From Thermosulfurimonas dismutans (GTDB lineage: Bacteria; Desulfobacterota; Thermodesulfobacteria; Thermodesulfobacteriales; Thermodesulfobacteriaceae): a stretch of DNA of 32,000 nucleotides. The stretch covers positions 30,001-62,000 of the forward strand of contig NZ_LWLG01000012.1 in the NCBI RefSeq assembly GCF_001652585.1. The letters run 5' to 3'. Under the pieces are notes generated by a model that searched no databases, was not told the origin of the DNA, and was given only the letters and a program-made list of their open reading frames with translations. Numbering within the stretch: the first letter of the stretch is position 1; every line of letters begins with the position of its first letter. Both the position numbers and the translations under genes were made by a program. Shown here piece after piece: positions 2,295-28,012 of the stretch.

Positions 2295-2906
2295 TCAGGG
2301 GACGAATCGGGAAGCTATCCGATTCTGGGGGTCTAGAATCAGGATATCCCCAAAAATGGAGATCGCTACTTTCTTTTGACCAGAATGATACAGGGTTAAG
2401 GCCAACTGAGTAAGAAAAGCCACATCCGTAGGATAAAGGGTTAGCATCTTCCGGCAGACGGCTTCGGCCTGGCGATACTTTTTTTGTTCTCGCAGGGCTT
2501 GAGCGAGGCGAAGATTGCCATAGTAGTTATAAAAATCTATTTTCAAAACTCGAGTCATCAATTCTTCCACTTCTTTCCACCTTTTTTGAACCATATAGGT
2601 AAGGCCCAAGCCCAGAAGTGGTTCCACGGCCTGCGGGGCTACCTCTGCGGCCTTTTCGTAGTGTTTTCGGGCCTCCCGATAGCGCCCCTCTAGATAAAAT
2701 AACCAACCCAATCTTAAATTGACGGTATAGCCCCGAGGGAATTTCTCGTAAACTGGAAGAAGGGCCTCTCTAGCTTTGACATACTCTCCCCGCCTCTCAA
2801 ACTCATAGGAAAGATGGTAGGCCCGCTTGATAGCCTTATAATCCAAGGCCCAGGCCCAGCTAACTCCAAGGACCAGGATGAGAAGACTCAAAAGAATCTT
2901 TCGCAT
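2295..2906 (-). CDS. Secreted tetratricopeptide-repeat (TPR) protein, last gene of the sigma54 operon
   Basis: The ORF is 203 aa with signal peptide MRKILLSLLILVLGVSWAWA. Helical TPR-like units repeat (EYVKAREALLPVYEKFP, GRYREARKHYEKAAEVAP, KKYRQAEAVCRKMLTLYP). The start overlaps the upstream stop (TGATG at 2904-2908). Confidence 0.75.
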   Translation of the reverse strand: MRKILLSLLILVLGVSWAWALDYKAIKRAYHLSYEFERRGEYVKAREALLPVYEKFPRGYTVNLRLGWLFYLEGRYREARKHYEKAAEVAPQAVEPLLGLGLTYMVQKRWKEVEELMTRVLKIDFYNYYGNLRLAQALREQKKYRQAEAVCRKMLTLYPTDVAFLTQLALTLYHSGQKKVAISIFGDILILDPQNRIASRFVP

Positions 2907-3772
2907 CAGAAGTTAAAACCGATGAAACCAGTAATTATGGCCTGGTTGACACTTTTGTCAGATTCCACTTCTTTATAGGTATTCCAAGTTCCGGTAAGAC
3001 CTAGAACGTAATTATTGAATCGGTAAGTGACTTCCATGGAGGCCCCGCCGCGGTACTTTTCCGTAAGGTTGTAAACCACAAAACCGGAATTTTTGACCGC
3101 AAAGATCTGCTGTCCTACCCAACCGGACAGCTTTACGCTCAAAGGCCCTCGAGTACAGGTTCCAGAAAGCTCAAAGGAGTAATAGTTTTCCATGGAAAGC
3201 CCGATTTTTTCGTCCTCGTCAATATGGATGTAGTAGCCCCGGGCCTCGAGATAAAGACTCCTTTTTCCGAAATAGAAGAACTTTCCGGCGTGAGGAGAGA
3301 TCTGAAAGACGTCCAGATCCACCATTTCGTCATAGTTCGAATAGAAGAATTCCAGCCCGGCATTCCACTTCCAGGGCACGAAATAAGTGAGGTCCGTAAA
3401 AAGAATCAGCCCTTCATCGGTGAGGTCATCGTCGGTGGAGATATAGTGGCCTCCCAGACGCAAAGATAGATTGGGATAAAGGCTCCCGGTGTTGGTGTAG
3501 GCCAGGGTGTAATCCGTTTGATCAAGGTCCGAATAACCGGACTCATAGTTGATGTGGAGTTGGGAGACCGCGGCCTCAAGGCCATGATGTCTTCCGTCCC
3601 CAAGGCTTCCGTAGGCCGTAAAAGAATATCCATCATCCTTGACCTTGGAGTTGCCATAATTCAAATAGGCCCCGTAGAGGGCAAAATACTTCTTGAGTTC
3701 CGAAGTTCGACCGGTGCCCCAAGTCAGACCCAGAATCAAAACTACAATAAGCATCAACCATACTTTTCTCAT
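2906..3772 (-). CDS. Outer-membrane beta-barrel protein
   Basis: The ORF is 288 aa with an N-terminal signal peptide (MRKVWLMLIVVLILGLTWG). Alternating hydrophobic/aromatic beta-strand patterns run throughout, and the C-terminus is the aromatic ...GFIGFNF typical of OMPs. The start forms an ATGA overlap with the upstream stop (3769-3772). Confidence 0.7.
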   Translation of the reverse strand: MRKVWLMLIVVLILGLTWGTGRTSELKKYFALYGAYLNYGNSKVKDDGYSFTAYGSLGDGRHHGLEAAVSQLHINYESGYSDLDQTDYTLAYTNTGSLYPNLSLRLGGHYISTDDDLTDEGLILFTDLTYFVPWKWNAGLEFFYSNYDEMVDLDVFQISPHAGKFFYFGKRSLYLEARGYYIHIDEDEKIGLSMENYYSFELSGTCTRGPLSVKLSGWVGQQIFAVKNSGFVVYNLTEKYRGGASMEVTYRFNNYVLGLTGTWNTYKEVESDKSVNQAIITGFIGFNF

Positions 3773-5844
3773 CTCTTCCTCCTTAATTGATAAATTCGAT
3801 TTTTGATTTTTATTTCGATCTCTTCAAAGCCTACATCTTCGGCAAGGACCGTCTTAGTTTCTATCTTTTCATTATTCAAGTTGATTTTACCCGAAAAATC
3901 AAGTAGGCTTTGTGATTCATATCTGGCTTTTATTTGGAAATATCGTGGATAAAAAGAAATAAGAAAAAGATACCATTCTTTTTTAAAGCCCGAGAGTCCT
4001 ATTTCAAGTGGAAGACTATCCTCCCAACGAAGGCCTGGTTTCAAGGCCAGAGGCACTTTCGGGGCCGCAAGGAAGAGCCATTTCAAGGGTGAAGACTTAC
4101 GGCCCTCAAAACTCAGGAAGTAGAAGGCCTTTTCCTTTAAGGCAAAATAAAGCCTACTCTGGCCATCAGTAAGGTAAAAAGTCCCGTCCGGGGCCATTTC
4201 CACAGAAAGCGCAATTTCTCCGAAAAGACTGCCGTTTTCATATAGGCTGTAAGCCAACTTCTGGCCAAGGAGGAGATTGAGCCGCTTTTTGAGGGCCTTA
4301 TCCGGGGCCAAGGGCTCAACCGTTGAACCTTCCACGGGCAAGGAAAAATCCTTAAAAAGCCCCTCTTCCAGATACCCGGAGAAGACAAAAGGCAGGGTGG
4401 GCGAGCCGATCTCGGGCCCATGCTGGATATGGAAGTGAAGATGGGGTTCCGGTGCATAGCCCGAACTTCCGCAGAGCCCGAGCACCGTTCCTTTCACTAC
4501 CCAATCTCCCTTTTTGACCCGCAGGGTTCCGGGGCTGAAGTGTGCAAGCACAGCATAAAAACCGCGGAGATCGTAAATCACCACATGGTTCCCCCAGGGA
4601 TTTTCCCGATTAGCTGAGCCTGGAGGCTCATCTGGAAGCCCATCTACGGCCTCCACCACCCGGCCCGAGACCGGGGAAAAGACCGGCTTACGATAGGCGT
4701 AATAGTCCTCGGGGCGCATCCCCTCTCCGGCAAAGGTGCGGCCGTTTTCGTCCGCTACGACGAAGTCCAGGGCGTGACGCCAAGGCCCCTTGTGGGTGAA
4801 CTGGCCGTCTGGTCCCTGAGAGATGAGCCAACGTCCACTTACCGGAAGGTCCACCTCTGGAACCAGAGAAGGAAACCGGATCTCAAAGCTTAGATGATGA
4901 TCCAGGGTTTTCTCGGGCGTGCCCTTATAAAGGGCGGTAAGCTTCCTGAAGCCTGAAACTATGAGGGCATAGAGAAAAAGCAGGGTTACCAGGTTAAATG
5001 GAAGGGCAAAGGCCGGGAGACCGAACTTCTCCCAGAAGACCCGAGAGGCTTCGGTTATGGGCACCGCCACCACCGCCCCCAGGATCGCCAGGAGATAACT
5101 CCGGGGAGAGGGTATCAGGAAAACCCCTCCCAGGGCCATGCTGATGAGGACGTAGTTGAAGTGTATGGGATTGGAGAAAACCTGATACGAAGAACCGGTG
5201 AAGAGGTAAGCCATAAGGGTTCCTGAAAAATAGCCCAGTGCGGCCAAAAGCGCGAGAATCCTTGAGAACCGGAGAATGAGGGCGAAAACTATGAAACCGG
5301 GAAGGGGGTGAGGCATGAAAAAGATGGCCCCTAGAGAACGGAAAAAGCCCTCAAGCCACAGGGGGAGACCTCCCACACTGTAATGGAAGGTGGGTTTAAG
5401 ACTTGTGACCAAGAGATTGGAATAATGGTAGGAGGCAAGAGTAGCCACAAGACTTCCGATCACAAACGGAAGGCTCAGGACCGGGAGCCTCAAGTAATAA
5501 GATAGAAAGGAAGAAAGACCATAGGTAAGGAGAAAGGTAAAAATCCCTAGCAGGATTATAAAGAGAAGGGTTAAAGGATCAAGCCGAAAGTAATAGCCCA
5601 CGGAAAGGCCCACCAGAAGGGGATTATAGATGTAGTAGTCAAGTCTCAGGAAATCTTCTTTAAGTCCGATAAGCCTCGCAAAGCCGTAGGCCGAAAGTAC
5701 ACAAATAAGGCCCGAGAGTCCCAGATTGGGATCCATGAGGGTGGAAAGGGCCAAAAGGACCAGTCCGGCTCCAGGCTCGCTTATAAAAAGGATGCCGGAG
5801 TAACTGTTCAGGAGTGAATGGATGGCCGTCTTAAGAGCCTTCAT
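3769..5844 (-). CDS. Urea-transporter-like (UT family) membrane domain fused to an M23 metallopeptidase domain and an unassigned ~190-aa C-terminal domain
   Basis: I moved the start from 5973 to the ATG at 5842-5844, which forms an ATGA overlap with the decarboxylase stop. From there the product begins MKALKTAIHSLLNSYSGILFISEPGAGL, a UT-like N-terminus. About 10 hydrophobic segments follow, then the M23 zinc motifs WRHALDF (HxxxD) and EPHLHFHIQ (HxH). The tail has no motif I recognise. Confidence 0.75.
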   Translation of the reverse strand: MKALKTAIHSLLNSYSGILFISEPGAGLVLLALSTLMDPNLGLSGLICVLSAYGFARLIGLKEDFLRLDYYIYNPLLVGLSVGYYFRLDPLTLLFIILLGIFTFLLTYGLSSFLSYYLRLPVLSLPFVIGSLVATLASYHYSNLLVTSLKPTFHYSVGGLPLWLEGFFRSLGAIFFMPHPLPGFIVFALILRFSRILALLAALGYFSGTLMAYLFTGSSYQVFSNPIHFNYVLISMALGGVFLIPSPRSYLLAILGAVVAVPITEASRVFWEKFGLPAFALPFNLVTLLFLYALIVSGFRKLTALYKGTPEKTLDHHLSFEIRFPSLVPEVDLPVSGRWLISQGPDGQFTHKGPWRHALDFVVADENGRTFAGEGMRPEDYYAYRKPVFSPVSGRVVEAVDGLPDEPPGSANRENPWGNHVVIYDLRGFYAVLAHFSPGTLRVKKGDWVVKGTVLGLCGSSGYAPEPHLHFHIQHGPEIGSPTLPFVFSGYLEEGLFKDFSLPVEGSTVEPLAPDKALKKRLNLLLGQKLAYSLYENGSLFGEIALSVEMAPDGTFYLTDGQSRLYFALKEKAFYFLSFEGRKSSPLKWLFLAAPKVPLALKPGLRWEDSLPLEIGLSGFKKEWYLFLISFYPRYFQIKARYESQSLLDFSGKINLNNEKIETKTVLAEDVGFEEIEIKIKNRIYQLRRKR

Positions 5845-7181
5845 CGCAGATGTTCGGGAACTCTTTCCTTTCTTACGATGTCCTCCAGATTTTCGGCCTC
5901 GCGGATGACCTCTGCCCGGCCGTCCTCCGTGATGAGGATCACCCGTGGGCGGTAGGTAATAAATTGCATCCACTGAGTCACATTGTAAGCCCCCACCGGG
6001 GAGAGGATGAGATGGGTGTTTCTAGGAAGTGGGGGCAGGAGAGCACTCTCCTCCACCACATCGATGTTCATGCAGAGGGGACCGTAAAGGACGCAGGGTT
6101 CGGGTGGACCAGGAATCTCTCTCTCCATCTCCACCTTGAGGTGGTACCAGAAGGCCGTAAAAAGGAGATTAACCCCGGCATCAAGAATATAGGCCCGCCG
6201 GCCGTCAGGAAGCCTTTTGGTCGCCCTTACGGTAGTAAGGAGGAACCCGGCCTCATCCACCAGGGCCCGGCCGGTTTCCATAATGAGAAGCGGATAGTTT
6301 CCCGGAGGGAGTCCGGAAAGCATGGCCCGGCCGATGGCCTCAATGTACTCCGCTAGCGAAGGAACCGCCACCTCCGGCGGAAGATAGATACCTTTTAGGC
6401 GATTGCGGGATGGAAAGCCCCCTCCGAGGTCCAGATACTCTATCTGCCAGCCAAAACGGTTCTCTAACTCTCCGGCAAGCCTCACCAGTTTTTCGGCCGC
6501 CTGGCCATAGGCCCCTGGTTCAAGAATAAAGGTACCCTGGTGACAGTGAAGCCCAACCACCTCGAGGAGGCCTCCGGCAGCTATCCGCCGGGCCACTTGC
6601 ATGACCTCTCCGTTTTCAAGATTGAACCCGAATCGGTCCCAGCGGGGATAGATGCCGGTATCCATGTTAACCCGAAGGCCGATTTTAAGGCGCCGGCCCA
6701 TCTTGCGGGCCAGGTTTTCAAGATCAAGGACCTCGTCCAAGGAGTCGGCGTTAATTCGGGCCCCTTCAGAGACCGCGCGCTCTAGAATCTCTAGCGGTTT
6801 ATAAGGGCCGTTAAAGACTATTTTTTCCCCGGGAATTCCGAGTCTTCGGGCCTTCTCGTACTCAAAATCCGAGACTACCTCCGCCGTAGCCCCTTCCTGG
6901 TGAAAGATCCGGCAGATGGCGTCCAGATAGTTGGTCTTGTAGGACCAACTGAACTCCACCCGGGGATAGTGGCTCTCAAAGAGACGTTTGAGATACCGGA
7001 ACCTCTCTCGGAGCCTCTTTTCCGAGAAGACGAAAAGTGGAGAGCCGAATTTCTCAACCAAGGTCTTCACCGGAATTCCATCTATCTCCGAACGGATAAG
7101 GGTTCGCGCGGCGCTTTTCTTTTCCCGCATAAAACCTACATGCAGTTTAAGAATACTCGGTTTTTGATAGAGTTTTTTCAT
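5841..7181 (-). CDS. PLP-dependent decarboxylase, Orn/DAP/Arg decarboxylase family (fold type III); substrate unknown
   Basis: The ORF is 446 aa. Family-type motifs are present: FSWSYKTNY (PLP-lysine region, compare AxKAN), HCHQGT, YLDLGGGFP (GGG phosphate loop) and YGPLCMNIDV (active-site Cys region). ATGA overlaps occur at both ends (7178-7181 and 5841-5844). Confidence 0.8.
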   Translation of the reverse strand: MKKLYQKPSILKLHVGFMREKKSAARTLIRSEIDGIPVKTLVEKFGSPLFVFSEKRLRERFRYLKRLFESHYPRVEFSWSYKTNYLDAICRIFHQEGATAEVVSDFEYEKARRLGIPGEKIVFNGPYKPLEILERAVSEGARINADSLDEVLDLENLARKMGRRLKIGLRVNMDTGIYPRWDRFGFNLENGEVMQVARRIAAGGLLEVVGLHCHQGTFILEPGAYGQAAEKLVRLAGELENRFGWQIEYLDLGGGFPSRNRLKGIYLPPEVAVPSLAEYIEAIGRAMLSGLPPGNYPLLIMETGRALVDEAGFLLTTVRATKRLPDGRRAYILDAGVNLLFTAFWYHLKVEMEREIPGPPEPCVLYGPLCMNIDVVEESALLPPLPRNTHLILSPVGAYNVTQWMQFITYRPRVILITEDGRAEVIREAENLEDIVRKERVPEHLR

Positions 7182-8206
7182 CTCTCCCCCCTAGTAACCA
7201 TGTGCTGAAAGATTTGAATATCGGTTACAAAGTCGTCGGTAAAACGGATATAGAGTTTCCCGGCCTCGTAATGGGATTCCCTTTCCGGTTCCTCTCCGAG
7301 GGCGGCTTTAAGGAGTCTTTCCGGAAGATTAACCCCTACGCCCACCGCAAAATAGATCCAGGCCGGAAAGCGGGGATTGATCTCGATGAGATAGATCTCT
7401 TCGTCCTTCACAATAGTCTCCAGCTCAAAGGCTCCACGCCATCGAAAGGCCCTTACGAACTCCTCGGCGGCGGAAAGTAGCCTTTGGTGGGTTACGGTCA
7501 CCCCGGTCCAGATCTTTCCCAGGGAGGTAATCCAGAGTTTTTTGATGGTCACCAGCCCGAAATGTCCTCCCTCTCCGTCGCCGACCCCCACCACGTTCAT
7601 CTCCTCGCCCGCAACCACTTCCTGAAGAATCACCGGAAATCCCCATTCCGCCAAAATACTGTGGAAGTACTGCTCCGCTTCCGCGGGGGTGTGGGCCTTA
7701 AGGGCCTTATAAAAAAGGCCCTTAACCATGACCGGAAATTTCAGCTGTGAGAGGGCCCGGGAGAATTCTTCGTATGAAGTAACTACCAGGGTGGCAGGGA
7801 TCTTGATTCCGATGGTCTCGGCTACTGCCGGTAGCCGATCCTTGGCCCGCAGACGGAACTGTTCTTTGGAGGGAAGAAAGGTTTTTATTCCGTAGGCCGA
7901 AAGCCTTTCCTGGAGATCTATAAAAAGAGGCAGTTCGGCATCCAGGGCCGGGATGATGGCCTCAAGATCCTCTTTTTCCCGGATATAAAGGAGTCGATTG
8001 AGAAAAGGGGCTTCGCCCTCGGAAGGATAGGGCATAAGATAGGCCCGCTCAATCAGTTGTTCGAGATAGACTCCGGGTTCCATGGCATCATAGGCTAGGC
8101 CGACCACGGAGACCGAAAGACTTCCCTCCCGAAGACCTTTTATAATTCCGATTCCCGGGCCAGGATTGTCAACCGCGTTTATCCCGGAGACCGCAACCTT
8201 AATCAT
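7178..8206 (-). CDS. ATP-grasp family carboxylate-amine/peptide ligase
   Basis: The ORF is 342 aa. The layout resembles ATP-grasp enzymes: FPVMVKG (ATP-binding Lys region), VILQEVVAGEE and the Mg/ATP loop YLIEINPRFPAW. The start overlaps the PqqD-like stop by 8 nt (ATGATTAA). Confidence 0.75.
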   Translation of the reverse strand: MIKVAVSGINAVDNPGPGIGIIKGLREGSLSVSVVGLAYDAMEPGVYLEQLIERAYLMPYPSEGEAPFLNRLLYIREKEDLEAIIPALDAELPLFIDLQERLSAYGIKTFLPSKEQFRLRAKDRLPAVAETIGIKIPATLVVTSYEEFSRALSQLKFPVMVKGLFYKALKAHTPAEAEQYFHSILAEWGFPVILQEVVAGEEMNVVGVGDGEGGHFGLVTIKKLWITSLGKIWTGVTVTHQRLLSAAEEFVRAFRWRGAFELETIVKDEEIYLIEINPRFPAWIYFAVGVGVNLPERLLKAALGEEPERESHYEAGKLYIRFTDDFVTDIQIFQHMVTRGER

Positions 8207-8447
8207 GGCTTTCCCTCCAGAGCCCGAATCTCCTTAAGCCCTCCAGAAACTCCTCCACGTCCCGTTCCGCCTCTTCAGGGGAAACCTCGTATTCCTCAAG
8301 GATGGCCTCAACGATTGCCGTGGGTGACAATCCTTCCTTGAGCTTCTGCAAGATAAAAAGCCCAGTTTCGTTTACGGTATAACTGTTTCCGGTCTCGGGA
8401 TCAAACACAAAGCCTTCATCACTTATGGCCAGGCGAGAGATCTTCAT
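8199..8447 (-). CDS. PqqD-like small protein (RiPP-recognition-element / peptide-chaperone fold)
   Basis: The ORF is 82 aa. The N-terminus forms a short beta-sheet pattern (ISDEGFVFDPETGNSYTVNETGLFILQKL), followed by acidic helices (SPTAIVEAILEEYEVSPEEAERDVEEFLEGL), as is typical of the PqqD family. A strong RBS AAGGAGG sits 6 nt upstream of the ATG. Confidence 0.65.
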   Translation of the reverse strand: MKISRLAISDEGFVFDPETGNSYTVNETGLFILQKLKEGLSPTAIVEAILEEYEVSPEEAERDVEEFLEGLRRFGLWRESHD

Positions 8448-8458
8448 TTCGGGCCTCC

Positions 8459-9265
8459 TTATCTATTTTCCCTGAGCCATTTCATAATATCCCAGGCAGT
8501 AACACCATGGGAAAGGGCTAATTCCCTTAGAGGGCTATTCCAATCTGGGCGCACTCCGTGTTTCTTAAGAATCCCCTCACAGGTCTTACGGTCAAGCCCG
8601 AAGAGCTCACAGACCTCCTTTAGGGTTCGCTTACCAGGATGGGCGATGACCGGTGCTACAGAACCCTTAGCGGTGGAAGCGCTCTGTTTCTGACTGATGA
8701 TTATCAAATAAAGATCCGCTGGGGAGGTCTTGTTTAGACGGGCAAGCTCCTTGAGAGACATTTGGGAAGAGGGAATTTTAAACCCTCGAGCTTCTAAGAC
8801 CTGTATAGTTTTTTGCAGGGAAAGACCCTCTCTTTTGACAACGACTTCGAGAGAAAGAAGTTCAGCGTGAGGCACTGGGGGAGGAACTGCCGGCTTGTGC
8901 CAAGAGGCTTTAAATCTTTCCTGGAGGCTCATTAGCAGGCTTGCCGGCGGAAGATCCTTTATCGCTAGGACCGTAAGAGCCACCGTAACCAGAGTCAGGG
9001 AAACCAAAACCTTGCTCGGGGCCCTTGTCGAGCCCAGATAGCGTTTAAAGGGCTTCCAGTTCAGATAGAAATGCCAGGCCGCAAGAAAGATCACGAGAAC
9101 CCCGAAGAGGATATGGATAGCCTCCCACTGATCCTTTCCCAGTCCCAGAAGGCGCCAGTCCGTCCAGTAGGCCACGCGGCCAGGCGGCATGATATAAAGC
9201 ACGAGTCCTGTTAGGACCGTGAGCCCCAGAGCATAGAAGAGAAAGAGGCTAACAAAGCTTCTCAT
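8459..9265 (-). CDS. DUF4405-like membrane protein (His-bearing helices) with a duplicated soluble C-terminal module
   Basis: The ORF track starts at 9298. I prefer the ATG at 9263-9265 (MRSFVSLFLFY...), which has GGGGGA 6 nt upstream and removes the overlap with the upstream gene. The signature is WEAIHILFGVLVIFLAAWHFYLNWKPF. The C-terminal half contains two similar ~45-aa units (LSLQKTIQVLEARGFKIPSSQMSLKELARLNKTSPADL and RTLKEVCELFGLDRKTCEGILKKHGVRPDWNSPLRELALSHGVTAWDI). Confidence 0.6.
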   Translation of the reverse strand: MRSFVSLFLFYALGLTVLTGLVLYIMPPGRVAYWTDWRLLGLGKDQWEAIHILFGVLVIFLAAWHFYLNWKPFKRYLGSTRAPSKVLVSLTLVTVALTVLAIKDLPPASLLMSLQERFKASWHKPAVPPPVPHAELLSLEVVVKREGLSLQKTIQVLEARGFKIPSSQMSLKELARLNKTSPADLYLIIISQKQSASTAKGSVAPVIAHPGKRTLKEVCELFGLDRKTCEGILKKHGVRPDWNSPLRELALSHGVTAWDIMKWLRENR

Positions 9266-9276
9266 CCCAGATCCCC

Positions 9277-9981
9277 CTATTTGTTTTCCTGAGGGCATTT
9301 TCTAAGGCTCAAAGTCCGGCCGTCTTTGAGGAGTACGATCCGGCAGGCCATGTATTCGTCTATGTTGCGAGCAGCCCAGAATGGAGGCTGGTAGGCCAAG
9401 ATCTCCACCTTCTCGCCAGGTTTAAGCTCCGGATAATCGTTTAACCAAAGGGGAGAAATCCTGAAGGTAGCCACCCGGCCCTCACTATTTTTTACTTCTA
9501 TTACCAACCATTTAATCTGAGGCCGACCTATACCGGGGCTGCTCTTCCGGGCCACGATTTCCCCGGAATAGACCAGCGGTTTCAGACTAGTTCTCCAACA
9601 GGGCTTGCCTGGCCCCTCTCGCAGCACGAGGACCGCCCCGGTATCGAGATTTTTTACCTCCGCCGCCACCAAAACCGGCTGACCGGCAAAGGCCGTACGT
9701 GGGGGAATCCAGCCTCTAACCCTGATCCGGTCTCCCGTAGTAAAGGGAGGCTTGAGCTTCCACCATTCGGGATAAAGCCTCACCTTTATTTCCTTTTTCT
9801 CGGTGGCTACCAACGCGGTCACGAAGCCGAACCTGGCCTTGGGAGAGGCCTTTTCCACCCGGATCTCCCTGACCGTGCCCTCCACCTCCTGCATAGGAAC
9901 CCCGGGACCCTTTCCAAAGGCGGCTCCGAACCATATTAGAAGAAAAAGCAAACTAAATATTTCAATTTTTCTCGTGTTCAT
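9277..9981 (-). CDS. Secreted protein with two OB-fold-like (BOF-like) repeats, first gene after the sigma54 promoter
   Basis: I moved the start from the TTG at 10011 to the ATG at 9979-9981, which has AAGGAGG 7 nt upstream. The product begins MNTRKIEIFSLLFLLIWFGAAFG, a signal peptide. Two internally similar halves are visible (GTVREIRVEK...VRLYPEWW...GDRIRVRGWIPP and GEIVARK...FRISPLWL...GEKVEILAYQPPFW). Confidence 0.55.
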   Translation of the reverse strand: MNTRKIEIFSLLFLLIWFGAAFGKGPGVPMQEVEGTVREIRVEKASPKARFGFVTALVATEKKEIKVRLYPEWWKLKPPFTTGDRIRVRGWIPPRTAFAGQPVLVAAEVKNLDTGAVLVLREGPGKPCWRTSLKPLVYSGEIVARKSSPGIGRPQIKWLVIEVKNSEGRVATFRISPLWLNDYPELKPGEKVEILAYQPPFWAARNIDEYMACRIVLLKDGRTLSLRKCPQENK

Positions 9982-10017
9982 ACCTACGACCTCCTTTTTC
10001 CTTTTTAGCAAAAATTA

Positions 10018-10034
10018 AGCAAAGGGTATGCCAA
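10018..10034 (-). promoter_or_regulatory. Sigma54 (RpoN) -24/-12 promoter
   Basis: The minus strand reads TTGGCATACCCTTTGCT, that is TGGCAT-N5-TTGCT with exact GG-N10-GC spacing. The consensus is TGGCAC-N5-TTGCW. The GC element lies 37 nt upstream of the ATG at 9981. The promoter is immediately downstream of a sigma54-dependent activator gene pair. Confidence 0.7.
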
Positions 10035-10072
10035 CCCTAAACCTTTAAAAACAGCGGCTCCGAGGTCTCTGA

Positions 10073-10123
10073 CCTCGGAAACTTTTCCGAAAAAGGGATC
10101 ATTTTTCGGAAAAGTTTCCGAGG
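10073..10123. repeat. Perfect 22-bp inverted repeat with a 7-nt spacer spanning the kinase stop codon
   Basis: Arm 10073-10094 is CCTCGGAAACTTTTCCGAAAAA and arm 10102-10123 is TTTTTCGGAAAAGTTTCCGAGG. I checked all 22 positions base by base and they are complementary. The spacer GGGATCA contains the TGA of the kinase. A second hairpin (CCGAGGTC-TCT-GACCTCGG, 10060-10078) shares CCTCGG with the left arm. Confidence 0.85.
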
Positions 10124-11244
10124 GGAAGTCTAATGGTAAAAACGGTCCAACCGGAACATAATTCGGCCTTGACGCTTCCACCGTGGGCCTCTACGATTCT
10201 CTTGACATTGAAGAGGCCGAGACCGAAGCCTCCGGGTTTTTGGCTCTTGTAGGGCCTGAAAAGTTCGGTGGTCTCGGGAAGAAGGCCTGCAGAATCGGCC
10301 ACCTCTATACGATAAAATTCGCCCTCAACGTCCCCGTAAAGCCTCATTCTGCGGGGAGGAGGTGCCTGAGCCAGGGCCTCCAGGGCATTTCTAATAAGGT
10401 TTCGAAGGACCACGCGCATCTTTTCAGGATCAACGGAAAGTTTTGCGGGCGCAAGTCTGACCTCGGTTTCGACTCCAAGATCTTCTACTCTTTCGGAAAA
10501 TTCTCCGAGGATCTCTTTTATCAAATCGTTTATTCTGGTTTCAACAGGCCTTAGAGCCAGAGGCTTCCTTAAATCGGAGACCTCTACCAGATAAAGGGTG
10601 AGTCGCCTAATTTCCTCCTCAAGGATTTTTATTTCTTCGGACGAAGTCTTCTTTTTCAGGCGAAAGACCGCAAAATTGAGGTTATTCAGGGCGTTTTTGA
10701 CCTCGTGAAGCATGGATGCGATGGCCAGGGATACGCTTTTTAGCCGTTCGGCTTCGGCCCTTTCCTGAGCAAGGATCAGTCTGCTTTCGTAATAACTCCT
10801 GAGCAACCAAAGGGTTAACCCTAACCCCATGAAATTGAGGAGTAACCACAAGCTGAGTTCAATGTAGAAATGGCGTTTGATCTCGTAAAAGACCTCCCCC
10901 GAGAAGTAGAGTTTAAATACGAAGGGGTTGAGTTCCAGGGTGTAAATCAGATTTTTGGGAGGAATGTCCGTCCCCGGAACGATGATGGTTCTTCCGGAAA
11001 GGATAAGGGCTGCCCCTTTGAGAAGGTCGGAATCCTCCATATATTCTGCAAGGGTTTCCACAGGATCGCCTCCAGAGATCACAGTGGCCTTGAGAACCGA
11101 ATAAATACGCCGTTTTTCTTCCTCCAGCGTCAAATAAAAAAATTTCTCCCATTCCTTCTTCAAACGGTAAAAATCGTAAAGAAAACCCAGACCCAAGGCC
11201 AAAAGTACGGTAAAAAAGAGAAAGAGATAACGTCTAGATGCCAT
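10099..11244 (-). CDS. Sensor histidine kinase (two TM segments, ~100-aa extracytoplasmic loop, HisKA + HATPase_c)
   Basis: The ORF is 381 aa. TM1 is YLFLFFTVLLALGLGFLY and TM2 is LSLWLLLNFMGLGLTLWLL. The H-box is SMLHEVKNALNNL, the N-box is VLRNLIRNALEA and the G2 box is GGFGLGL. The start overlaps the regulator stop by 11 nt. Confidence 0.85.
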   Translation of the reverse strand: MASRRYLFLFFTVLLALGLGFLYDFYRLKKEWEKFFYLTLEEEKRRIYSVLKATVISGGDPVETLAEYMEDSDLLKGAALILSGRTIIVPGTDIPPKNLIYTLELNPFVFKLYFSGEVFYEIKRHFYIELSLWLLLNFMGLGLTLWLLRSYYESRLILAQERAEAERLKSVSLAIASMLHEVKNALNNLNFAVFRLKKKTSSEEIKILEEEIRRLTLYLVEVSDLRKPLALRPVETRINDLIKEILGEFSERVEDLGVETEVRLAPAKLSVDPEKMRVVLRNLIRNALEALAQAPPPRRMRLYGDVEGEFYRIEVADSAGLLPETTELFRPYKSQKPGGFGLGLFNVKRIVEAHGGSVKAELCSGWTVFTIRLPLGNFSEK

Positions 11245-12580
11245 ATTTTTTGCGTTTATAACGTAGGGACTTCTCGTCTATCCCCAGAAGTTCGGCAGCC
11301 CTGGTCTGCACATAGCCAGTCTGCTCTAGGGCTTCCTTGAGAAGGAGCTTCTCCACGTCGGCAAGGACTTTGGGGAGGGCTTTTCCTAGCGGAAGATGCA
11401 GATCGATCTTCGACTCGCCCTTAGTCTCAAGTCCAAGAACTTCGGGAGTAATTTCCCTGCCGCTTACCAACACCGCCCGGTGGATAAGATTCTCGAGCTC
11501 CCTGACATTTCCCGGAAAAGAATAACGGAGTAGCTCTTCCATAGCTTCCGGGGTGATCTTTACATCTTTTTGGTATTTCTGGTTAAACTTCCGCAGGAAA
11601 TAAGCAACAAGTTCAGCAATATCTTCCTTTCGTTCGCGAAGGGGTGGAATCTTTAGGACTAGGACATTCAGGCGAAAATAGAGATCCTCTCGAAATTTTT
11701 GTCGAGAGACCGCGGCCTTAAGATCTTCATTGGTAGCCGCTATGATTCTGGCGTCGCTTTTCAGAATCTTATTGCTGCCTAGACGACGAAATTCGCCTTC
11801 CTGGAGGAACCGTAGGAGTTTGCTCTGAAGAACAAGGGGCATCTCTCCGATTTCGTCAAGGAAAAGCGTACCGCCTTGGGCTTCTTCGATCAGACCCGAC
11901 CGAGAAGTTTCAGCCCCGGTAAAGGCCCCACGCTCATAACCAAAAAGTTCGGCTTCGAAGAGTTGCTCAGGCAAGGCCGCACAATTCACGGCCACAAACC
12001 GACCCTTACGCCCGCTTTTTTCGTGGATATAACGGGCTAAAAGCTCCTTTCCCACTCCGGACTCTCCTAGAATAAGAATGGGGGCCTCGGGCCGGGCAAA
12101 GATCTCGGCCTGCCGCAGAAGATCCTTCATTACCTGTGAACGATAAACCAAAGGCCCCGGCTCTCGGGGTCTTCTTAGACTAACGAGTTCCCCACACCTT
12201 CTCACCAAATTAAGGAGGACCTCGGGCTCATAAGGTTTTACCAGATAGTGAAAGGCCCCGGCCTTGATCGCAGAAATTGCGTCTTCTATCTCACCGAAGG
12301 CTGTAATGATAAGGACTTCGGTTTCTGGACTCTTCTCTTTTATACGCTCAAGGAGTTCCAAGCCGCTCATCCCCGGAAGCCGGACATCCAAAATGGCCAC
12401 ATCTATTTCTTCTTGGCTCAACACGGGCAGGGCCTTTTCGGCACTGGGCACACTCCAAACGCGATATCCTTCTTCCTCTAAGGTCTTCCGCAGAAGTTCG
12501 CGATGGATCTTCTCGTCTTCTACTATCAGGATACGCAGGCTATCGCCTTCGGGACCGGAGTCGACCTCTTTTCTTTTCAT
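11234..12580 (-). CDS. Sigma54-dependent response regulator (NtrC family: receiver + AAA+ + Fis-type HTH)
   Basis: The ORF is 448 aa. The receiver domain shows ILIVEDE...DVAILDVRLPGMSG. The AAA+ domain has Walker A GESGVGKE, the sigma54-contact loop ERGAFTGA, Walker B LFLDEIG and RVIAATN-like IIAATNEDL. The C-terminal HTH is TRAAELLGIDEKSLRYKRKKYGI. Confidence 0.92.
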   Translation of the reverse strand: MKRKEVDSGPEGDSLRILIVEDEKIHRELLRKTLEEEGYRVWSVPSAEKALPVLSQEEIDVAILDVRLPGMSGLELLERIKEKSPETEVLIITAFGEIEDAISAIKAGAFHYLVKPYEPEVLLNLVRRCGELVSLRRPREPGPLVYRSQVMKDLLRQAEIFARPEAPILILGESGVGKELLARYIHEKSGRKGRFVAVNCAALPEQLFEAELFGYERGAFTGAETSRSGLIEEAQGGTLFLDEIGEMPLVLQSKLLRFLQEGEFRRLGSNKILKSDARIIAATNEDLKAAVSRQKFREDLYFRLNVLVLKIPPLRERKEDIAELVAYFLRKFNQKYQKDVKITPEAMEELLRYSFPGNVRELENLIHRAVLVSGREITPEVLGLETKGESKIDLHLPLGKALPKVLADVEKLLLKEALEQTGYVQTRAAELLGIDEKSLRYKRKKYGI

Positions 12581-12598: not shown

Positions 12599-13465
12599 TT
12601 AAGACGTCCGAAGGCCCCTTTCCAAATAAGCTAGGAACTTGTAAATCAGACGGGCAGCCAGGTATTCCGTACGGGGATCTCCGGGAATAGGCAAAAGCTC
12701 TACCACATCAAAACCAATGACCCGGAAGGAGGCTGCCAACTTCAAAATTTCGAGGACCTCATACCAGGTAAGCCCTCCAGGCTCGGGAGTGCCCACTCCG
12801 GGGGCCTCCGCGGGATCAAAACCATCAAGATCTAAAGTCACGTAAACCGGCCCCTCCCCCAAAAGGTCTTTCAAGTTTGCAAGACCGGCTTCAAAGTCCC
12901 GTTTGAGGTCCCGGGCCCACAGGACAGAAAGTTTTTCCCTCTGAATGAGTTCGTATTCCTCCCGGGAGGCCGTCCGTATTCCCACGGCCACCACCTCAAG
13001 GCCCATCTCATAAGCCCGCCGCATAACGCAAGCATGGCTGAAGGGAGTTTCCTGGTAAACATCCCTCAAATCTGGATGGGCATCTATCTGAAGGATTTTG
13101 AATGACGAAAAGCGCTCCTTTAAAGCCCTCAGAGCCGCAAGGGTAACGGTGTGTTCACCCCCGAGGAGAACCGGAAACTTTTGTTCGTCCAGGGCCTTAC
13201 AGACCAGGCTCTCTATAGTAAGAATGGCTTTCTCGGGGTCTACCGGAAGTTCGGGCTCCGGAAAGGTATAGAAACCCAAGTTACGGTGAGGTTCGCTTCC
13301 GGTTTCCTCGTCAAAAAACTCGAGATAAGGACTAACCTCTAGGATACGTCTCGGGCCCTCTCTCGTCCCTGGGCGCCAAGAAGTAGTGGCGTCGTAGGGA
13401 GCAGGAATGAGGGCTACCCGAGCCTTCTCTCGGACCTCGGGTAGCCCCAGAAAGGTCCGTCTCAT
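12599..13465 (-). CDS. speB: Agmatinase / ureohydrolase (arginase family)
   Basis: The ORF is 288 aa. The arginase-family Mn-binding motifs are present: LGGEHTVT, QIDAHPDLR and VTLDLDGFDP. The start directly abuts the speH stop (TAGATG). Confidence 0.88.
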   Translation of the reverse strand: MRRTFLGLPEVREKARVALIPAPYDATTSWRPGTREGPRRILEVSPYLEFFDEETGSEPHRNLGFYTFPEPELPVDPEKAILTIESLVCKALDEQKFPVLLGGEHTVTLAALRALKERFSSFKILQIDAHPDLRDVYQETPFSHACVMRRAYEMGLEVVAVGIRTASREEYELIQREKLSVLWARDLKRDFEAGLANLKDLLGEGPVYVTLDLDGFDPAEAPGVGTPEPGGLTWYEVLEILKLAASFRVIGFDVVELLPIPGDPRTEYLAARLIYKFLAYLERGLRTS

Positions 13466-13924
13466 CTAGACCGCAAGCTGGTTCCTTTCGGTCCGGATGA
13501 AACGCTCCACCGCCCGAATGGAACGCGGAAACTCGTGGCCCCGATCAAGAAGCCGGATTTCGCTCTTCTGGACTTCAAAGAGTCGAGAAATATCCTCGAT
13601 GGCTTTGTCCACATCGAAGGGCTTGCAGGAAAAGATATCCACGCTCATATAAAGCTTTTCCGGAAAGGTATGGATACTAATGTGACTTTCAGCAATAATC
13701 ACGAAGCCTGAAATACCCCAATCCTCGGGCACCGGAGCATAATATTTGAAGACATAAGGAGGCATAATCTTAGTCATATTGATTTGGGACGGGTATTCAC
13801 TCAGAAAATTGTAAATAAAATCCAAGTCCATAAGCTTTTCCCGATTGCAACCATAGCCGTCAAGAATGAGATGCTGCCCGAAACCGTACTCCACCTTTTC
13901 CGAATCCATAAATTTCTTTTCCAT
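13466..13924 (-). CDS. speH: S-adenosylmethionine decarboxylase proenzyme (pyruvoyl-dependent, short bacterial/archaeal class)
   Basis: The ORF is 152 aa. The self-cleavage and active-site region is VIIAESHISIHTFPE, with the E-S processing site. GGAGGG lies upstream of the ATG at 13922-13924. Confidence 0.88.
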   Translation of the reverse strand: MEKKFMDSEKVEYGFGQHLILDGYGCNREKLMDLDFIYNFLSEYPSQINMTKIMPPYVFKYYAPVPEDWGISGFVIIAESHISIHTFPEKLYMSVDIFSCKPFDVDKAIEDISRLFEVQKSEIRLLDRGHEFPRSIRAVERFIRTERNQLAV

Positions 13925-27175: not shown

Positions 27176-28012
27176 ATGAAGAGAGCACTCTGGTTGCTAC
27201 TGACGGCGATTATTCTTCCTAGCTTGGCTTGGGCCCATTTTTTGATTGCTATTCCGGAAAAGGGCCAAGGATACGGTCTACGGGGGCAAGAACTCGCTTT
27301 CATGATCCTGTTTGGCCATCCCTTTGAAGGCATCCTCTACGACCTCAAGGCCCCTAAGGGTTACGTCGTTACTCCTAAAAACAAGAAAGACAAAGTCTCC
27401 CTGGCCCGAATCACCGTCAAGGACTACGCTTCCGGGAAGAAACGTTTTGGATATCGGATAACCTATCTTCCTACCGAGCGGGGGGACTATCTCCTGTGTC
27501 TTGAAGGCCGACCCTATCTAAATGAAGAAGAGGGGGAGGTTTGGAAAGATCACATGAAAACCCCCTTCCATGTACAGGTAGAACGAGGATGGGCGAATCT
27601 CTGTGGCTTTGGACTCGAGATTGTCCCGCTCACTCGCCCCTACGGTCTCACTGTAGGCCGGGTCTTCAAGGGTAGGGTCCTTTTGAACGGCAAACCGGCG
27701 GCCGGCATCACCCTTGAGATCGAAAAATTCAATGGTTTTTACGTCCCAGAAGAGAAACTCCCGCTCGATGCCTATGGCCGAGTTAACGATCCCCTCATCA
27801 CCCTAACCGTTACGACCGACGAGCAAGGCTATTTCACGATCGGATTCAGTGAGCCTGGCTGGTGGGCCATCAACGCCGCCATTTCCGGAGGGAAAATCAC
27901 CTACGCCAATCGCACTTTTCCTCTGGTGATCCGTTCCGGTATGTGGCTCTATGTCTTTCCAGCGAAACCAGTAGCTCCCACCGGTTTTGATCTACGTCCG
28001 GAGGAGAGATAA
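27176..28012 (+). CDS. DUF4198 / NikK-like periplasmic component of a Nik/Cbi ECF metal transporter
   Basis: The ORF is 278 aa with signal peptide ...ILPSLAWA, followed directly by HF. It is beta-rich, including a transthyretin/CarboxypepD_reg-like segment (GRVLLNGKPAAGITLEIE...TDEQGYFTIGF). It is translationally coupled to the CbiM homolog (ATAATG at 28009-28014). Confidence 0.65.
   Translation: MKRALWLLLTAIILPSLAWAHFLIAIPEKGQGYGLRGQELAFMILFGHPFEGILYDLKAPKGYVVTPKNKKDKVSLARITVKDYASGKKRFGYRITYLPTERGDYLLCLEGRPYLNEEEGEVWKDHMKTPFHVQVERGWANLCGFGLEIVPLTRPYGLTVGRVFKGRVLLNGKPAAGITLEIEKFNGFYVPEEKLPLDAYGRVNDPLITLTVTTDEQGYFTIGFSEPGWWAINAAISGGKITYANRTFPLVIRSGMWLYVFPAKPVAPTGFDLRPEER

Follow-up and report, generated by a model that had tools for sequence, protein, structure and literature searches.

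What is made, or moved, by a bacterial gene cluster in which enzymes of amide and amine chemistry are encoded side by side with a membrane pore, a metallopeptidase-like domain and proteins of the outer envelope? This question is raised by a locus of Thermosulfurimonas dismutans contained in a 32,000-nucleotide stretch of contig NZ_LWLG01000012.1 (positions 30,001 to 62,000 of the forward strand), hereinafter the window, in whose coordinates positions are given unless another locus is named. Calling of open reading frames (ORFs) showed that the segment 2295-9981 is filled by eight minus-strand ORFs, which the original prediction had described, in the direction of transcription, as encoding a secreted tandem OB-like protein, a DUF4405-like membrane protein, a PqqD-like protein, an ATP-grasp ligase, a pyridoxal phosphate (PLP)-dependent decarboxylase of the Orn/DAP/Arg family, a UT-like channel fused to an M23 peptidase, an outer-membrane beta-barrel and a TPR protein, and had taken to be a single system. 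We find that the conserved unit consists of the last six of these genes. The co-conservation of this six-gene unit upholds one part of the original view, whereas the OB-like and DUF4405 genes and the adjacent regulators turned out to be lineage-specific. With regard to function, the coarser claim, that the unit combines biosynthesis with export, appears to us about as likely to be right as wrong.

A second reading of the ORFs and of every junction reproduced the gene order and spacing as originally given, and the domain calls for the DUF4405, PqqD, ATP-grasp, decarboxylase, UT-M23 and TPR proteins were borne out by Pfam and NCBIfam. The OB-like and DUF4405 genes are separated by an 11-nt gap if the latter starts at the ATG at 9265, which is preceded by GGGGGA; use of the upstream ATG at 9298 would instead create a 22-nt overlap. 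The gap between the DUF4405 and PqqD-like genes, also of 11 nt, harbors AAGGAGG; the PqqD-like and ATP-grasp genes overlap by 8 nt; three ATGA overlaps join the ATP-grasp gene to the decarboxylase gene, the latter to the UT-M23 gene, and the UT-M23 gene to the barrel gene; and the barrel and TPR genes share TGATG. Judging from these junctions alone, the sequence suggests translational coupling of the operon genes. Matches resembling sigma70 promoters and terminators within the operon did not exceed the level expected by chance.

For the analysis of conservation, the window proteins were compared by tblastn with 80 fetched loci, of which 49 had enough flanking sequence to be evaluated. The block of the PqqD-like, ATP-grasp, decarboxylase and UT-M23 genes, the conservation of which as a unit had been named as a check on the original prediction, was detected in 46 of these 49 loci, all six genes, including those for the barrel and the TPR protein, were present in 39, and in 35 the six are colinear on one strand, with median gaps along the core of -1, 1, 10, -2 and 16 nt. 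The order of the core genes is maintained across approximately 20 phylum-level lineages, and the unit recurs in dozens of unrelated genomes. The carriers include Thermodesulfobacteriota, Aquificota, Deferribacterota, Hippea/Desulfurellales, Calditrichota, Ignavibacteria/Melioribacter, Rhodothermales, Gemmatimonadota, Verrucomicrobiota, Planctomycetota, Lentisphaerota, Chlamydiales, Leptospirales, Thiotrichaceae, Desulfobacterales, metagenome-assembled genomes (MAGs) of Thermotogota and several candidate phyla. Two peptide patterns, applied to a one-genome-per-species collection of 185,579 species, recovered 385 loci, a number that is a lower bound, and full-length homologs of the UT-M23 protein, one of them a T. 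dismutans protein with 100% identity, fell into 671 clusters (E<=1e-5). When close relatives are counted, the ligases are 52-83% and the decarboxylases 54-83% identical to their window counterparts, and the values are lower for the UT-M23 protein (41-67%), the TPR protein (36-79%) and the barrel (27-78%). All-against-all clustering of the ORFs from the 80 loci revealed no conserved neighbors beyond the six. We propose that the core is a horizontally spread cassette. In a few Aquificales, the UT-M23 gene occurs alone, and its flanks in loci L032 and L062 consist of unrelated housekeeping genes.

The decarboxylase (core gene 3; 5841-7181, minus strand) bears on the chemistry involved. This protein belongs to the alanine-racemase-fold PLP decarboxylases (Pfam Orn_Arg_deC_N, 101 bits), probably in the clade of FigC, BtrK and the diaminopimelate (DAP) decarboxylases, and its best match in the PDB is FigC (7kh2, 187 bits), with LysA-type DAP decarboxylases scoring at most 146 bits and BtrK 84 bits. 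In the order of PDB matches, which is a ranking and not a tree, FigC is followed by the DAP decarboxylases and then by D-ornithine/lysine decarboxylase and BtrK, all of them well above ornithine decarboxylase. Among 67 sequences of the family, K82, H214, the GGG motif, E302, R305, C370, D374 and Y399 are invariant, and of the 446 positions 144 reach 95% conservation or more when phyla are compared. Such strong conservation over this phylogenetic span implies a single, defined substrate.

Two candidates for the specificity of this enzyme were considered and rejected. In DAP decarboxylase structures, the far end of DAP is bound by the Glu of the CES-D loop and by a distal Arg. The cassette enzyme lacks this Glu, has no Arg at the position aligned to the distal-carboxylate Arg of Methanocaldococcus jannaschii LysA, and scores 209 bits against TIGR01048, for which the cut-off is 297.9. 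Its catalytic Cys loop is an invariant CMNID, to be compared with CMQHD in FigC and CESSD in DAP decarboxylase. The N-citrylornithine decarboxylase FigC/FslC fares no better: the score against NF041039 is 202 bits for a cut-off of 500, and the residues H357 and R387, through which FigC contacts citrate (PMC7857480), are replaced by I373 and Q403, both invariant in the 67 sequences. FigC itself falls in one clade with SbnH, AcsE, MccE, BtrK and the DAP decarboxylases (PMC7857480). Judged by its residues, the cassette decarboxylase is thus neither a DAP decarboxylase nor FigC, and its substrate is probably an amino acid tethered to a partner that is not acidic. Decarboxylation of an amino-acid moiety that is joined through its side chain to a larger scaffold is the reaction catalyzed by SbnH, AcsE, MccE and BtrK. 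Residues 1-17 of the protein (7130-7181, minus strand) lie N-terminal to the canonical fold and contain Y5, P8, I10 and G16, which are conserved across phyla; this extension might act as a peptide to which the PqqD-like protein docks.

The putative amide ligase of the ATP-grasp superfamily (core gene 2; 7178-8206, minus strand) exceeds the Pfam cut-offs for ATPgrasp_Ter (38.2 vs 29.1) and ATP-grasp_3 (34.7 vs 23.2) and possesses the invariant Mg/ATP motif E-I-N-P-R, the invariant residues including K122, K162, E275, N277 and R279. By profile search, its nearest relatives in the PDB are the structural-genomics protein 2pn1, which resembles carbamoyl phosphate synthetase (CPS), followed by CPS, the biotin carboxylase domain of pyruvate carboxylase and PurD. 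The matches to PylC and MfnD, enzymes that form side-chain amides, are weak, and every NCBIfam model for a characterized subfamily falls below its cut-off.

The gene for the PqqD-like protein of 82 amino acids (core gene 1; 8199-8447, minus strand; Pfam PqqD, 69 bits vs a cut-off of 23.4), a domain of the type that serves as the recognition element (RRE) for peptides made on the ribosome and modified after translation (RiPPs), is always coupled to the ligase gene. Conservation of the protein in 58 loci does not extend to its C-terminus, which varies, and so we rejected the possibility that it is a carrier of the LysW or RimK type, which is modified at the C-terminus. Another candidate, the HPr-rel-A system, is suggested by the score against NCBIfam TIGR04353 (PqqD_rel_X), 42.5 vs a cut-off of 35; an HprK-like kinase is present neither among the Pfam-scanned genes of the window nor in the conserved neighborhood, and automatic pipelines therefore probably misname the PqqD-like protein.

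In the NCBIfam comparison, the best matches of the PqqD-like protein are chaperones of lasso peptides and other RiPPs, which brings up the second hypothesis of the original prediction, namely, that the locus encodes a RiPP-like pathway with an unlinked precursor. In its classical form, this scheme would have the precursor bound by the PqqD-like protein, cross-linked or extended by the ATP-grasp enzyme, cleaved by the M23 domain as leader peptidase, and exported. The juxtaposition of an RRE, a peptidase and an ATP-dependent amide-forming enzyme parallels the B1, B2 and C proteins of lasso peptide systems, and M23 enzymes are, after all, peptidases. However, no precursor ORF conserved upstream of the PqqD-like gene was found among the ATG-initiated ORFs in the adjacent 450 bp. 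When all ORFs of 15-100 amino acids located between the core genes or no more than 1.2 kb away from the core were compared by blastp-short across approximately 60 loci, only fragments of known genes clustered and no conserved small ORF emerged, and the window itself has no spare intergenic space for a precursor gene. Moreover, it is established enzymology that fold-III PLP decarboxylases require a free alpha-amino acid, which an internal residue of a peptide is not, and a peptide would not fit through the narrow pore of a UT fold. A classical RiPP pathway accordingly seems unlikely to us, and the original hypothesis survives in a weakened form, as a scaffold peptide encoded elsewhere.

At the center of the cassette is the membrane protein encoded by core gene 4 (3769-5844, minus strand), for which an AlphaFold2 model (predicted local distance difference test score, pLDDT, of 89) shows a UT fold, an M23 fold and a C-terminal domain (CTD). 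The first of these, residues 1-296 (4957-5844), is recognized by Pfam UT with 223 bits vs a cut-off of 25, and in a Foldseek search of the model reached a template modelling (TM) score of 0.83 with the bacterial urea transporter dvUT (3me1), so that the call of a UT-like channel stands as far as the fold is concerned. In urea channels of this family, recognition of urea depends on the motif Q(Pa)-V-Y(3a)-T(5a) and Q(Pb)-V/I-F/Y(3b)-T(5b), which forms a Q-T-T-Q ladder (PMC11589576). An alignment of the UT domain with dvUT and human UT-A served to locate the motif positions, which we scored in 43 sequences of the family. In all 43, both glutamines and the first threonine are replaced (G, A or E at Pa, S or N at 5a, and A, T or S at Pb), none of the sequences has Gln at either Q position, and T(5b) is Ala in 31 and Thr in 12. 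Y73 and F229, the aromatic residues of the slot, are retained, as are the LPxxxLPF motifs of the pore helices, and the score against TIGR03441 (urea_trans_yut) is 115.5 bits for a cut-off of 274.6. On the evidence of the motif, the UT domain is predicted not to be a canonical urea channel.

The M23 (LytM-type) domain that follows (residues approximately 336-511; 4312-4839; Pfam M23, 46.5 vs 28.7) appears to be an intact zinc hydrolase: H351, D360, H435, H468 and H470 are present in 43 of the 43 sequences, and the modeled fold matches LytM, DipM and Csd, although the first motif, H-x8-D, is unusually spaced. The NCBIfam models for peptidoglycan hydrolases all remain far below their cut-offs. 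The CTD (180 amino acids; 3772-4311) is rich in beta structure, has no Pfam match and, as shown by an exhaustive search, occurs almost exclusively in the UT-M23 architecture. A model of the CTD alone (pLDDT of 94) yielded weak matches to a LolA-like half-barrel fold (E ~6e-3, TM scores of 0.35-0.40, probability up to 0.99).

Several observations bear on the location of the M23 domain. The AlphaFold2 model includes no transmembrane helix between the end of the UT domain and M23, and the bias in Lys and Arg content is 5.7 in the linker after the UT domain and 2.6 at the N-terminus, compared to 0.7 in the central loop, in agreement with the cytoplasmic termini of characterized UT family members. 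A further clue comes from fusion variants of approximately 1030-1130 amino acids (P0222, P0246, P0324 and P0349-P0362; one of the records comes from a Pirellulales MAG), in which TPR repeats follow the CTD. In the three of these sequences that were read, P0222, P0246 and P0324, a single hydrophobic helix preceded by an Arg-rich stretch is located between the CTD and the TPR repeats. The lack of a transmembrane helix behind the UT domain, the charge bias, the single helix of the fusions and the signal peptide of the stand-alone TPR protein jointly place M23 and the CTD in the cytoplasm and the TPR repeats in the periplasm. Hence the M23 domain is most likely cytoplasmic, as suggested by homology, charge and fusion architecture, and the role of an envelope peptidoglycan hydrolase that had been assigned to it does not agree with this prediction. 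In addition, the fusion of the TPR repeats argues that the UT-M23 and TPR proteins act as one complex. In one of the fusion-bearing loci, L081, the fused gene (8001-11330) directly follows the PqqD-like, ATP-grasp and decarboxylase genes; in this locus, the one with a fusion that was examined, no barrel gene lies downstream on the same strand. A different elaboration is seen in P0252 (1029 amino acids), where several additional hydrophobic segments and TPR-like repeats of a WDGLGW type follow the CTD, unlike the single-helix fusions.

An alternative explanation is modification of a peptidoglycan or lipid II precursor, whereby the ligase, on the cytoplasmic side of the membrane, would add a diamino acid to a carboxylate of the stem peptide, the decarboxylase would convert it to a diamine, M23 would trim stem peptides, and the LolA-like CTD would hold the lipid carrier. 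Both the M23 family and relatives of DAP decarboxylase are classically linked to peptidoglycan, the CTD weakly resembles the lipid-binding proteins LolA, LppX and LprG, and the predicted position of M23 and the CTD at the inner membrane face is where lipid II is made. The missing Glu and Arg for the distal end of DAP speak against this scheme, as does the patchy distribution of the cassette (385 loci among 185,579 species), which together with its high similarity across phyla is characteristic of an accessory, mobile trait. The scheme also leaves the pore, the periplasmic TPR protein and the dedicated outer-membrane barrel without explanation, and the cassette seems, from its promoter and regulators, to be inducible through sigma54 in a manner not expected of a housekeeping function. 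We regard it as improbable. The same assessment touches the first hypothesis of the original prediction: an exported amine or amide conjugate fits the nearest relatives of the decarboxylase, whereas the specific version of it, a polyamine-type modification of peptidoglycan, found no direct support.

The two remaining core proteins point to the outer part of the envelope. The TPR protein (core gene 6; 2295-2906, minus strand) has a cleavable signal peptide, is apparently periplasmic, and matches many TPR families, including weak matches to the TPR regions of PgaA, BcsC and PrsT in NCBIfam. The product of core gene 5 (2906-3772, minus strand) is a candidate outer-membrane beta-barrel with a signal peptide, a C-terminal Phe and, by inspection, approximately 14-16 amphipathic strands. 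It is an orphan: there is no match to PDB profiles, the Pfam matches are stray, none of 79 homologs contains a Pfam domain, and OMP_b-brl is matched weakly by 3 of 26 barrel homologs. The original designation as an outer-membrane protein is thus backed by the signal peptide, the terminal Phe and the strand-like pattern but not by membership in a family. Homologs share polar motifs such as HYIxSDDxLTD and GFVVYNLxEKYKGG, and the barrel and TPR genes are syntenic in most loci.

This pair invites comparison with synthase-dependent secretion, and a corresponding possibility is that the cassette produces a non-ribosomal linear polyamide. In such a scheme, which would extend the two-round logic of BtrJ and BtrK, the ligase would add an amino acid through its side-chain carboxyl, decarboxylation would regenerate an amine end, and the cycle would be repeated; the unbranched chain would thread through the slot-like UT pore into a TPR/barrel conduit akin to AlgK and AlgE, with M23 setting the length or releasing the chain. 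Beyond the BtrJ/BtrK precedent (PMC7857480), this notion draws on the resemblance of the TPR protein, sometimes fused to the inner-membrane protein, and the barrel to exopolysaccharide secretins, on the weak matches to PgaA, BcsC and PrsT, and on the UT domain itself, in which a slot suited to planar amides is kept and the urea-specific polar residues are lost. Yet direct evidence of a polymer is lacking, there is no known example of a UT pore that lets a chain through, the barrel shows no detectable relationship to AlgE, PgaA or BcsC, and in some loci it is absent. Polymer secretion of this kind appears to us very unlikely.

We prefer a different interpretation, to which we attach tentative belief, short of an even chance, namely that the cassette serves to make a small amide or amine, which is set free at the pore and then leaves the cell through the envelope. 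The first step, in the cytoplasm, would be taken by the ATP-grasp ligase together with the PqqD-like adaptor, which would form an amide linking the side chain of an amino acid to a partner; this partner could be a peptide bound by the PqqD-like protein or some other carboxylate or amine. The PLP decarboxylase would then strip the free alpha-carboxyl group of the tethered amino acid, yielding an amine; precedents for this logic of ligation and decarboxylation are BtrJ, BtrK and BtrI of butirosin biosynthesis, and FigC, SbnH and MccE. At the inner membrane, the UT-fold pore, presumably a trimer of the UT type, would be joined to the cytoplasmic zinc-dependent M23 hydrolase and the LolA-like domain, and M23, located where the pore opens, might clip the finished amide or amine off its tether or take off a protecting group. 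Conceivably, the product would cross the inner membrane by way of the pore, reach the TPR protein in the periplasm and exit via the orphan barrel. In T. dismutans and its relatives from hydrothermal vents, the operon would include, in addition, two accessory envelope proteins and would be switched on from a sigma54 promoter by the kinase/activator pair acting through two operator dyads. The substrates, the product, the order of the steps, the releasing role of M23, the direction of transport and the contacts between the components are what we infer. Because the enzymes, the pore, the scaffold and the barrel are conserved together and are in part fused, they seem to comprise an apparatus for transport through the entire envelope, and the presence of an ATP-dependent ligase with a PqqD-type adaptor indicates synthesis rather than breakdown.

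Several considerations weigh against synthesis with export of a small molecule. A UT-type pore is narrow, and pairs of TPR and barrel proteins are typical of polymer secretion rather than of small-molecule export; furthermore, the barrel is missing from its usual place in several loci as well as in the fusion-variant locus that was examined. Given that no conserved small ORF was found near the cassette, a peptide tether is hypothetical. The cytoplasmic placement of M23 is predicted in silico, the resemblance of the CTD model to LolA is weak, and the M23 domain could serve in regulation, immunity or salvage instead of product release. Finally, the ligase is nearest to the branch of CPS, biotin carboxylase and PurD, so that its profile matches may reflect bicarbonate or carbamate chemistry.

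Each part of the cassette belongs to a known superfamily, and the nearest functional precedents are BtrI, BtrJ and BtrK and the siderophore decarboxylases of the FigC type. The side-chain enzymes of butirosin biosynthesis (BtrI, BtrJ and BtrK, with BtrG) resemble the cassette in that an ATP-grasp ligase works alongside a PLP decarboxylase of the alanine-racemase fold, the substrate of BtrK being a tethered amino acid, as proposed for the cassette enzyme. They also have in common a small partner protein of approximately 85 amino acids and, in the proposed scheme, the later hydrolytic removal of a group, and the cassette enzyme is probably a member of the BtrK clade. Unlike that system, the cassette encodes a small protein with the PqqD/RRE fold, not a phosphopantetheinylated acyl carrier protein, and is devoid of aminoglycoside genes, whereas the butirosin system has no counterpart of the channel-fused M23 domain, the TPR protein or the outer-membrane barrel. 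The enzymes FigC/FslC, SbnH and AcsE/PvsE, from the pathways for rhizoferrin, staphyloferrin B, and achromobactin and vibrioferrin, respectively, convert an acylated amino acid to an acylated amine, as we envisage for the cassette, and FigC, the nearest solved structure, shares the C-M at the catalytic Cys loop. In the vibrioferrin cluster, such a decarboxylase is likewise paired with an ATP-grasp protein. In contrast to the citrate-siderophore pathways, the cassette has no NRPS-independent siderophore (NIS) synthetase, no TonB-dependent receptor and no citrate-binding residues of FigC.

The comparison for the membrane components follows the same pattern. The UT domain shares with dvUT, UT-A and UT-B (SLC14) the fold, the Pfam family, the aromatic slot and the pore-helix motifs but differs in the replaced urea-recognition Gln and Thr residues and in the fusion to M23, the CTD and sometimes TPR repeats. 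The M23 domain has the fold and the full H, D, H, HxH set of LytM, lysostaphin, ShyA, MepM and Csd1-3, yet, unlike these endopeptidases, it has a predicted cytoplasmic location and is joined to a pore, has H-x8-D in place of HxxxD, and is followed by a private CTD. Physical union of a cytoplasmic peptidase with an export conduit is known from peptidase-containing ABC transporters (PCATs), and a stand-alone PqqD-type protein next to an ATP-dependent amide-forming enzyme and a peptidase is seen in lasso peptide (B1/B2/C), pyrroloquinoline quinone (PQQ; PqqD/E/F) and pearlin systems. However, the cassette has none of the signature components of these systems (ABC and C39 domains, a radical-SAM enzyme, a lasso cyclase or a PEARL enzyme), its conduit has a passive-channel fold unlike that of a PCAT, and a precursor or scaffold gene is not linked to it. 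The presence of genes for a TPR scaffold and an outer-membrane barrel beside the gene for an inner-membrane protein that unites a cytoplasmic catalytic domain with a pore recalls AlgK/AlgE, PgaA, BcsC and PelB; in this case, the differences are the absence of a glycosyltransferase and of any detectable relationship between the orphan barrel and the barrels of those systems.

No match to the cassette or to the UT-M23 fusion was found in Pfam, NCBIfam, the sequences of the PDB or the searchable literature, in which the 2009 amidoligase survey was not covered, and within these sources the original statement that the locus corresponds to no characterized pathway holds. Since no matching system was found and every specific family model tested fails on a defining feature, we rate the cassette as new in kind. 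The central protein is labeled "urea transporter" or "peptidoglycan DD-metalloendopeptidase" in hundreds of genomes and MAGs, and both labels are probably wrong with respect to function, so that inferences on urea use or cell-wall remodeling drawn from metagenomes are unsafe. A passive-channel fold combined with a cytoplasmic zinc peptidase and, sometimes, a periplasmic TPR region suggests a new mode of coupling the last enzymatic step to export, and the very strong conservation of the ligase, the decarboxylase and the PqqD-like protein points to one defined, probably new metabolite, the putative makers of which are bacteria of hydrothermal vents, sediments, lakes and soils. Cultured carriers are available (Thermosulfurimonas, Thermovibrio, Desulfurobacterium, Persephonella, Hippea and Thermodesulfatator), and the cassette, at approximately 7 kb, is small enough for heterologous expression.

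How is the cassette controlled in T. dismutans? Upstream of the OB-like gene, at 10018-10033 on the minus strand, lies the sigma54 (-24/-12) promoter sequence TGGCATACCCTTTGCT, the sole match to TGGCAY-N5-TTGCW in the 32 kb and one with no counterpart in 100 shuffled sequences, so that the near-consensus promoter originally proposed is unique in the window. Approximately 50 bp upstream of the -24 element is a 14-bp dyad, CGGAA-N4-TTCCG (10076-10089), a candidate activator site, and a second, distal copy (10107-10120) lies within the 3' end of the kinase gene, at a distance of 31 bp from center to center; two exact copies are observed in the window vs 0.08 expected. Upstream of the promoter and on the same strand, as originally noted and as confirmed by the ORFs and Pfam, are the genes for a sensor histidine kinase (10099-11244; HisKA and HATPase_c domains, with a periplasmic loop of approximately 100 amino acids between two hydrophobic segments by sequence inspection) and, overlapping it by 11 nt, for a sigma54 enhancer-binding response regulator (11234-12580) with REC, AAA+ and Fis-type helix-turn-helix (HTH) domains (Sigma54_activat, 230 bits, together with Response_reg and HTH_8) and a GAFTGA motif readable in the translation. 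The features expected of a sigma54-dependent operon, namely, a -24/-12 promoter, a GAFTGA activator and paired upstream dyads, are all apparent at the level of sequence. A terminator-like hairpin 3' of the kinase gene (10058-10080, minus strand), in which a T-run comes after 10 pairs, is no more than a match to the consensus.

The activator orthologs adjoin the cassette also in loci L002 and L005 (Thermodesulfobacteriota) and L011 and L012 (Desulfurobacteriaceae). In these four loci, the paired dyads are kept, a TGGCAY-N5-TTGCT element is found at the equivalent place, and the order from the end of the kinase gene through the two dyads to this element is shared. The recurrence of the promoter and dyad footprint in two phyla supports direct control by the adjacent activator and strengthens the case, as predicted originally, for sigma54 and two-component regulation of the operon. 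Control of the cassette by sigma54 everywhere was considered and rejected, given that a good -24/-12 element precedes the PqqD-like gene elsewhere only in L010, L022, L038 and L047; the enrichment of such sites over background is modest. In a Deferribacteres MAG (L008, 12-1194), the PqqD-like gene begins within approximately 14 nt after a sensor kinase gene, with no accessory genes and no recognizable sigma54 promoter in the interval.

The regulation bears on one more alternative, that the cassette serves in uptake or salvage: an external amide or peptide would enter through the barrel and the UT pore and be hydrolyzed by M23 at the cytoplasmic mouth, with the decarboxylase and the ligase processing the substrate further, for instance, for nitrogen scavenging. 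Sigma54 control of the NtrC type is common for genes of nitrogen acquisition, UT channels are known to be passive and bidirectional, and hydrolysis at the inner end of the pore would retain a substrate that has come in. This possibility strikes us as improbable: sigma54 regulation is not conserved outside the vent lineages, an ATP-consuming ligase with a PqqD-like adaptor is a biosynthetic hallmark, TPR and barrel pairs are known from secretion and not from uptake, and the cassette includes neither a periplasmic binding protein nor a TonB-dependent receptor nor a barrel of a general porin family. With the promoter, the candidate dyads and the activator, the vent lineages offer a compact, testable sigma54 regulon with a defined operator.

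The genes that separate the promoter from the core are accessory. The OB-like protein (9277-9981, minus strand) has a signal peptide, and its description as a tandem protein is supported by the similarity of its halves, an internal duplication with E=1e-5, whereas the assignment to the OB fold depends on a weak tRNA_anti-codon match (E=0.006). The DUF4405 protein (8459-9265, or to 9298 with the alternative start; minus strand; Pfam DUF4405, 60 bits) is a membrane protein with an HTH-like C-terminal region. Homologs of the OB-like and DUF4405 proteins, the kinase and the activator are, among the 80 loci searched by tblastn, restricted to relatives among the Thermodesulfobacteriota and Desulfurobacteriaceae, so these proteins and the sigma54 two-component control are additions specific to hydrothermal-vent thermophiles. 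The C-terminal half of the DUF4405 protein (8459-8900) consists of two similar HTH-like segments of approximately 50 amino acids, with a weak match to HTH_28, an odd addition to a four-helix, cytochrome-b-like membrane domain. In other lineages, the genes directly upstream of the PqqD-like gene differ, but all encode envelope proteins: a DUF2202 protein in L014 (5139-6173); a DUF2231 membrane protein in L031 (1986-2489), such a protein occupying the position of DUF4405 in Persephonella; and a DUF2490-type barrel in L073 (6480-7292), where the usual barrel is missing.

The window contains several other genes of note. Directly upstream of the activator gene, 18 nt away, are genes for an arginase-family ureohydrolase (12599-13465, minus strand) and S-adenosylmethionine (AdoMet) decarboxylase (13466-13924, minus strand); a functional tie to this polyamine pair was rejected and its adjacency treated as incidental because the pair is not conserved next to the cassette in relatives. 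On the other side, a plus-strand gene (741-2267) converges with the operon, ending 27 nt from the stop codon of the TPR gene, and encodes a protein of 508 amino acids with two ACT-like regulatory domains and a metallo-beta-lactamase fold. Further away, and unrelated to the cassette, a gene for a DUF4198 periplasmic protein is followed by one for a CbiM-type transmembrane component (27176-29064, plus strand), a pair that looks like a nickel/cobalt uptake module.

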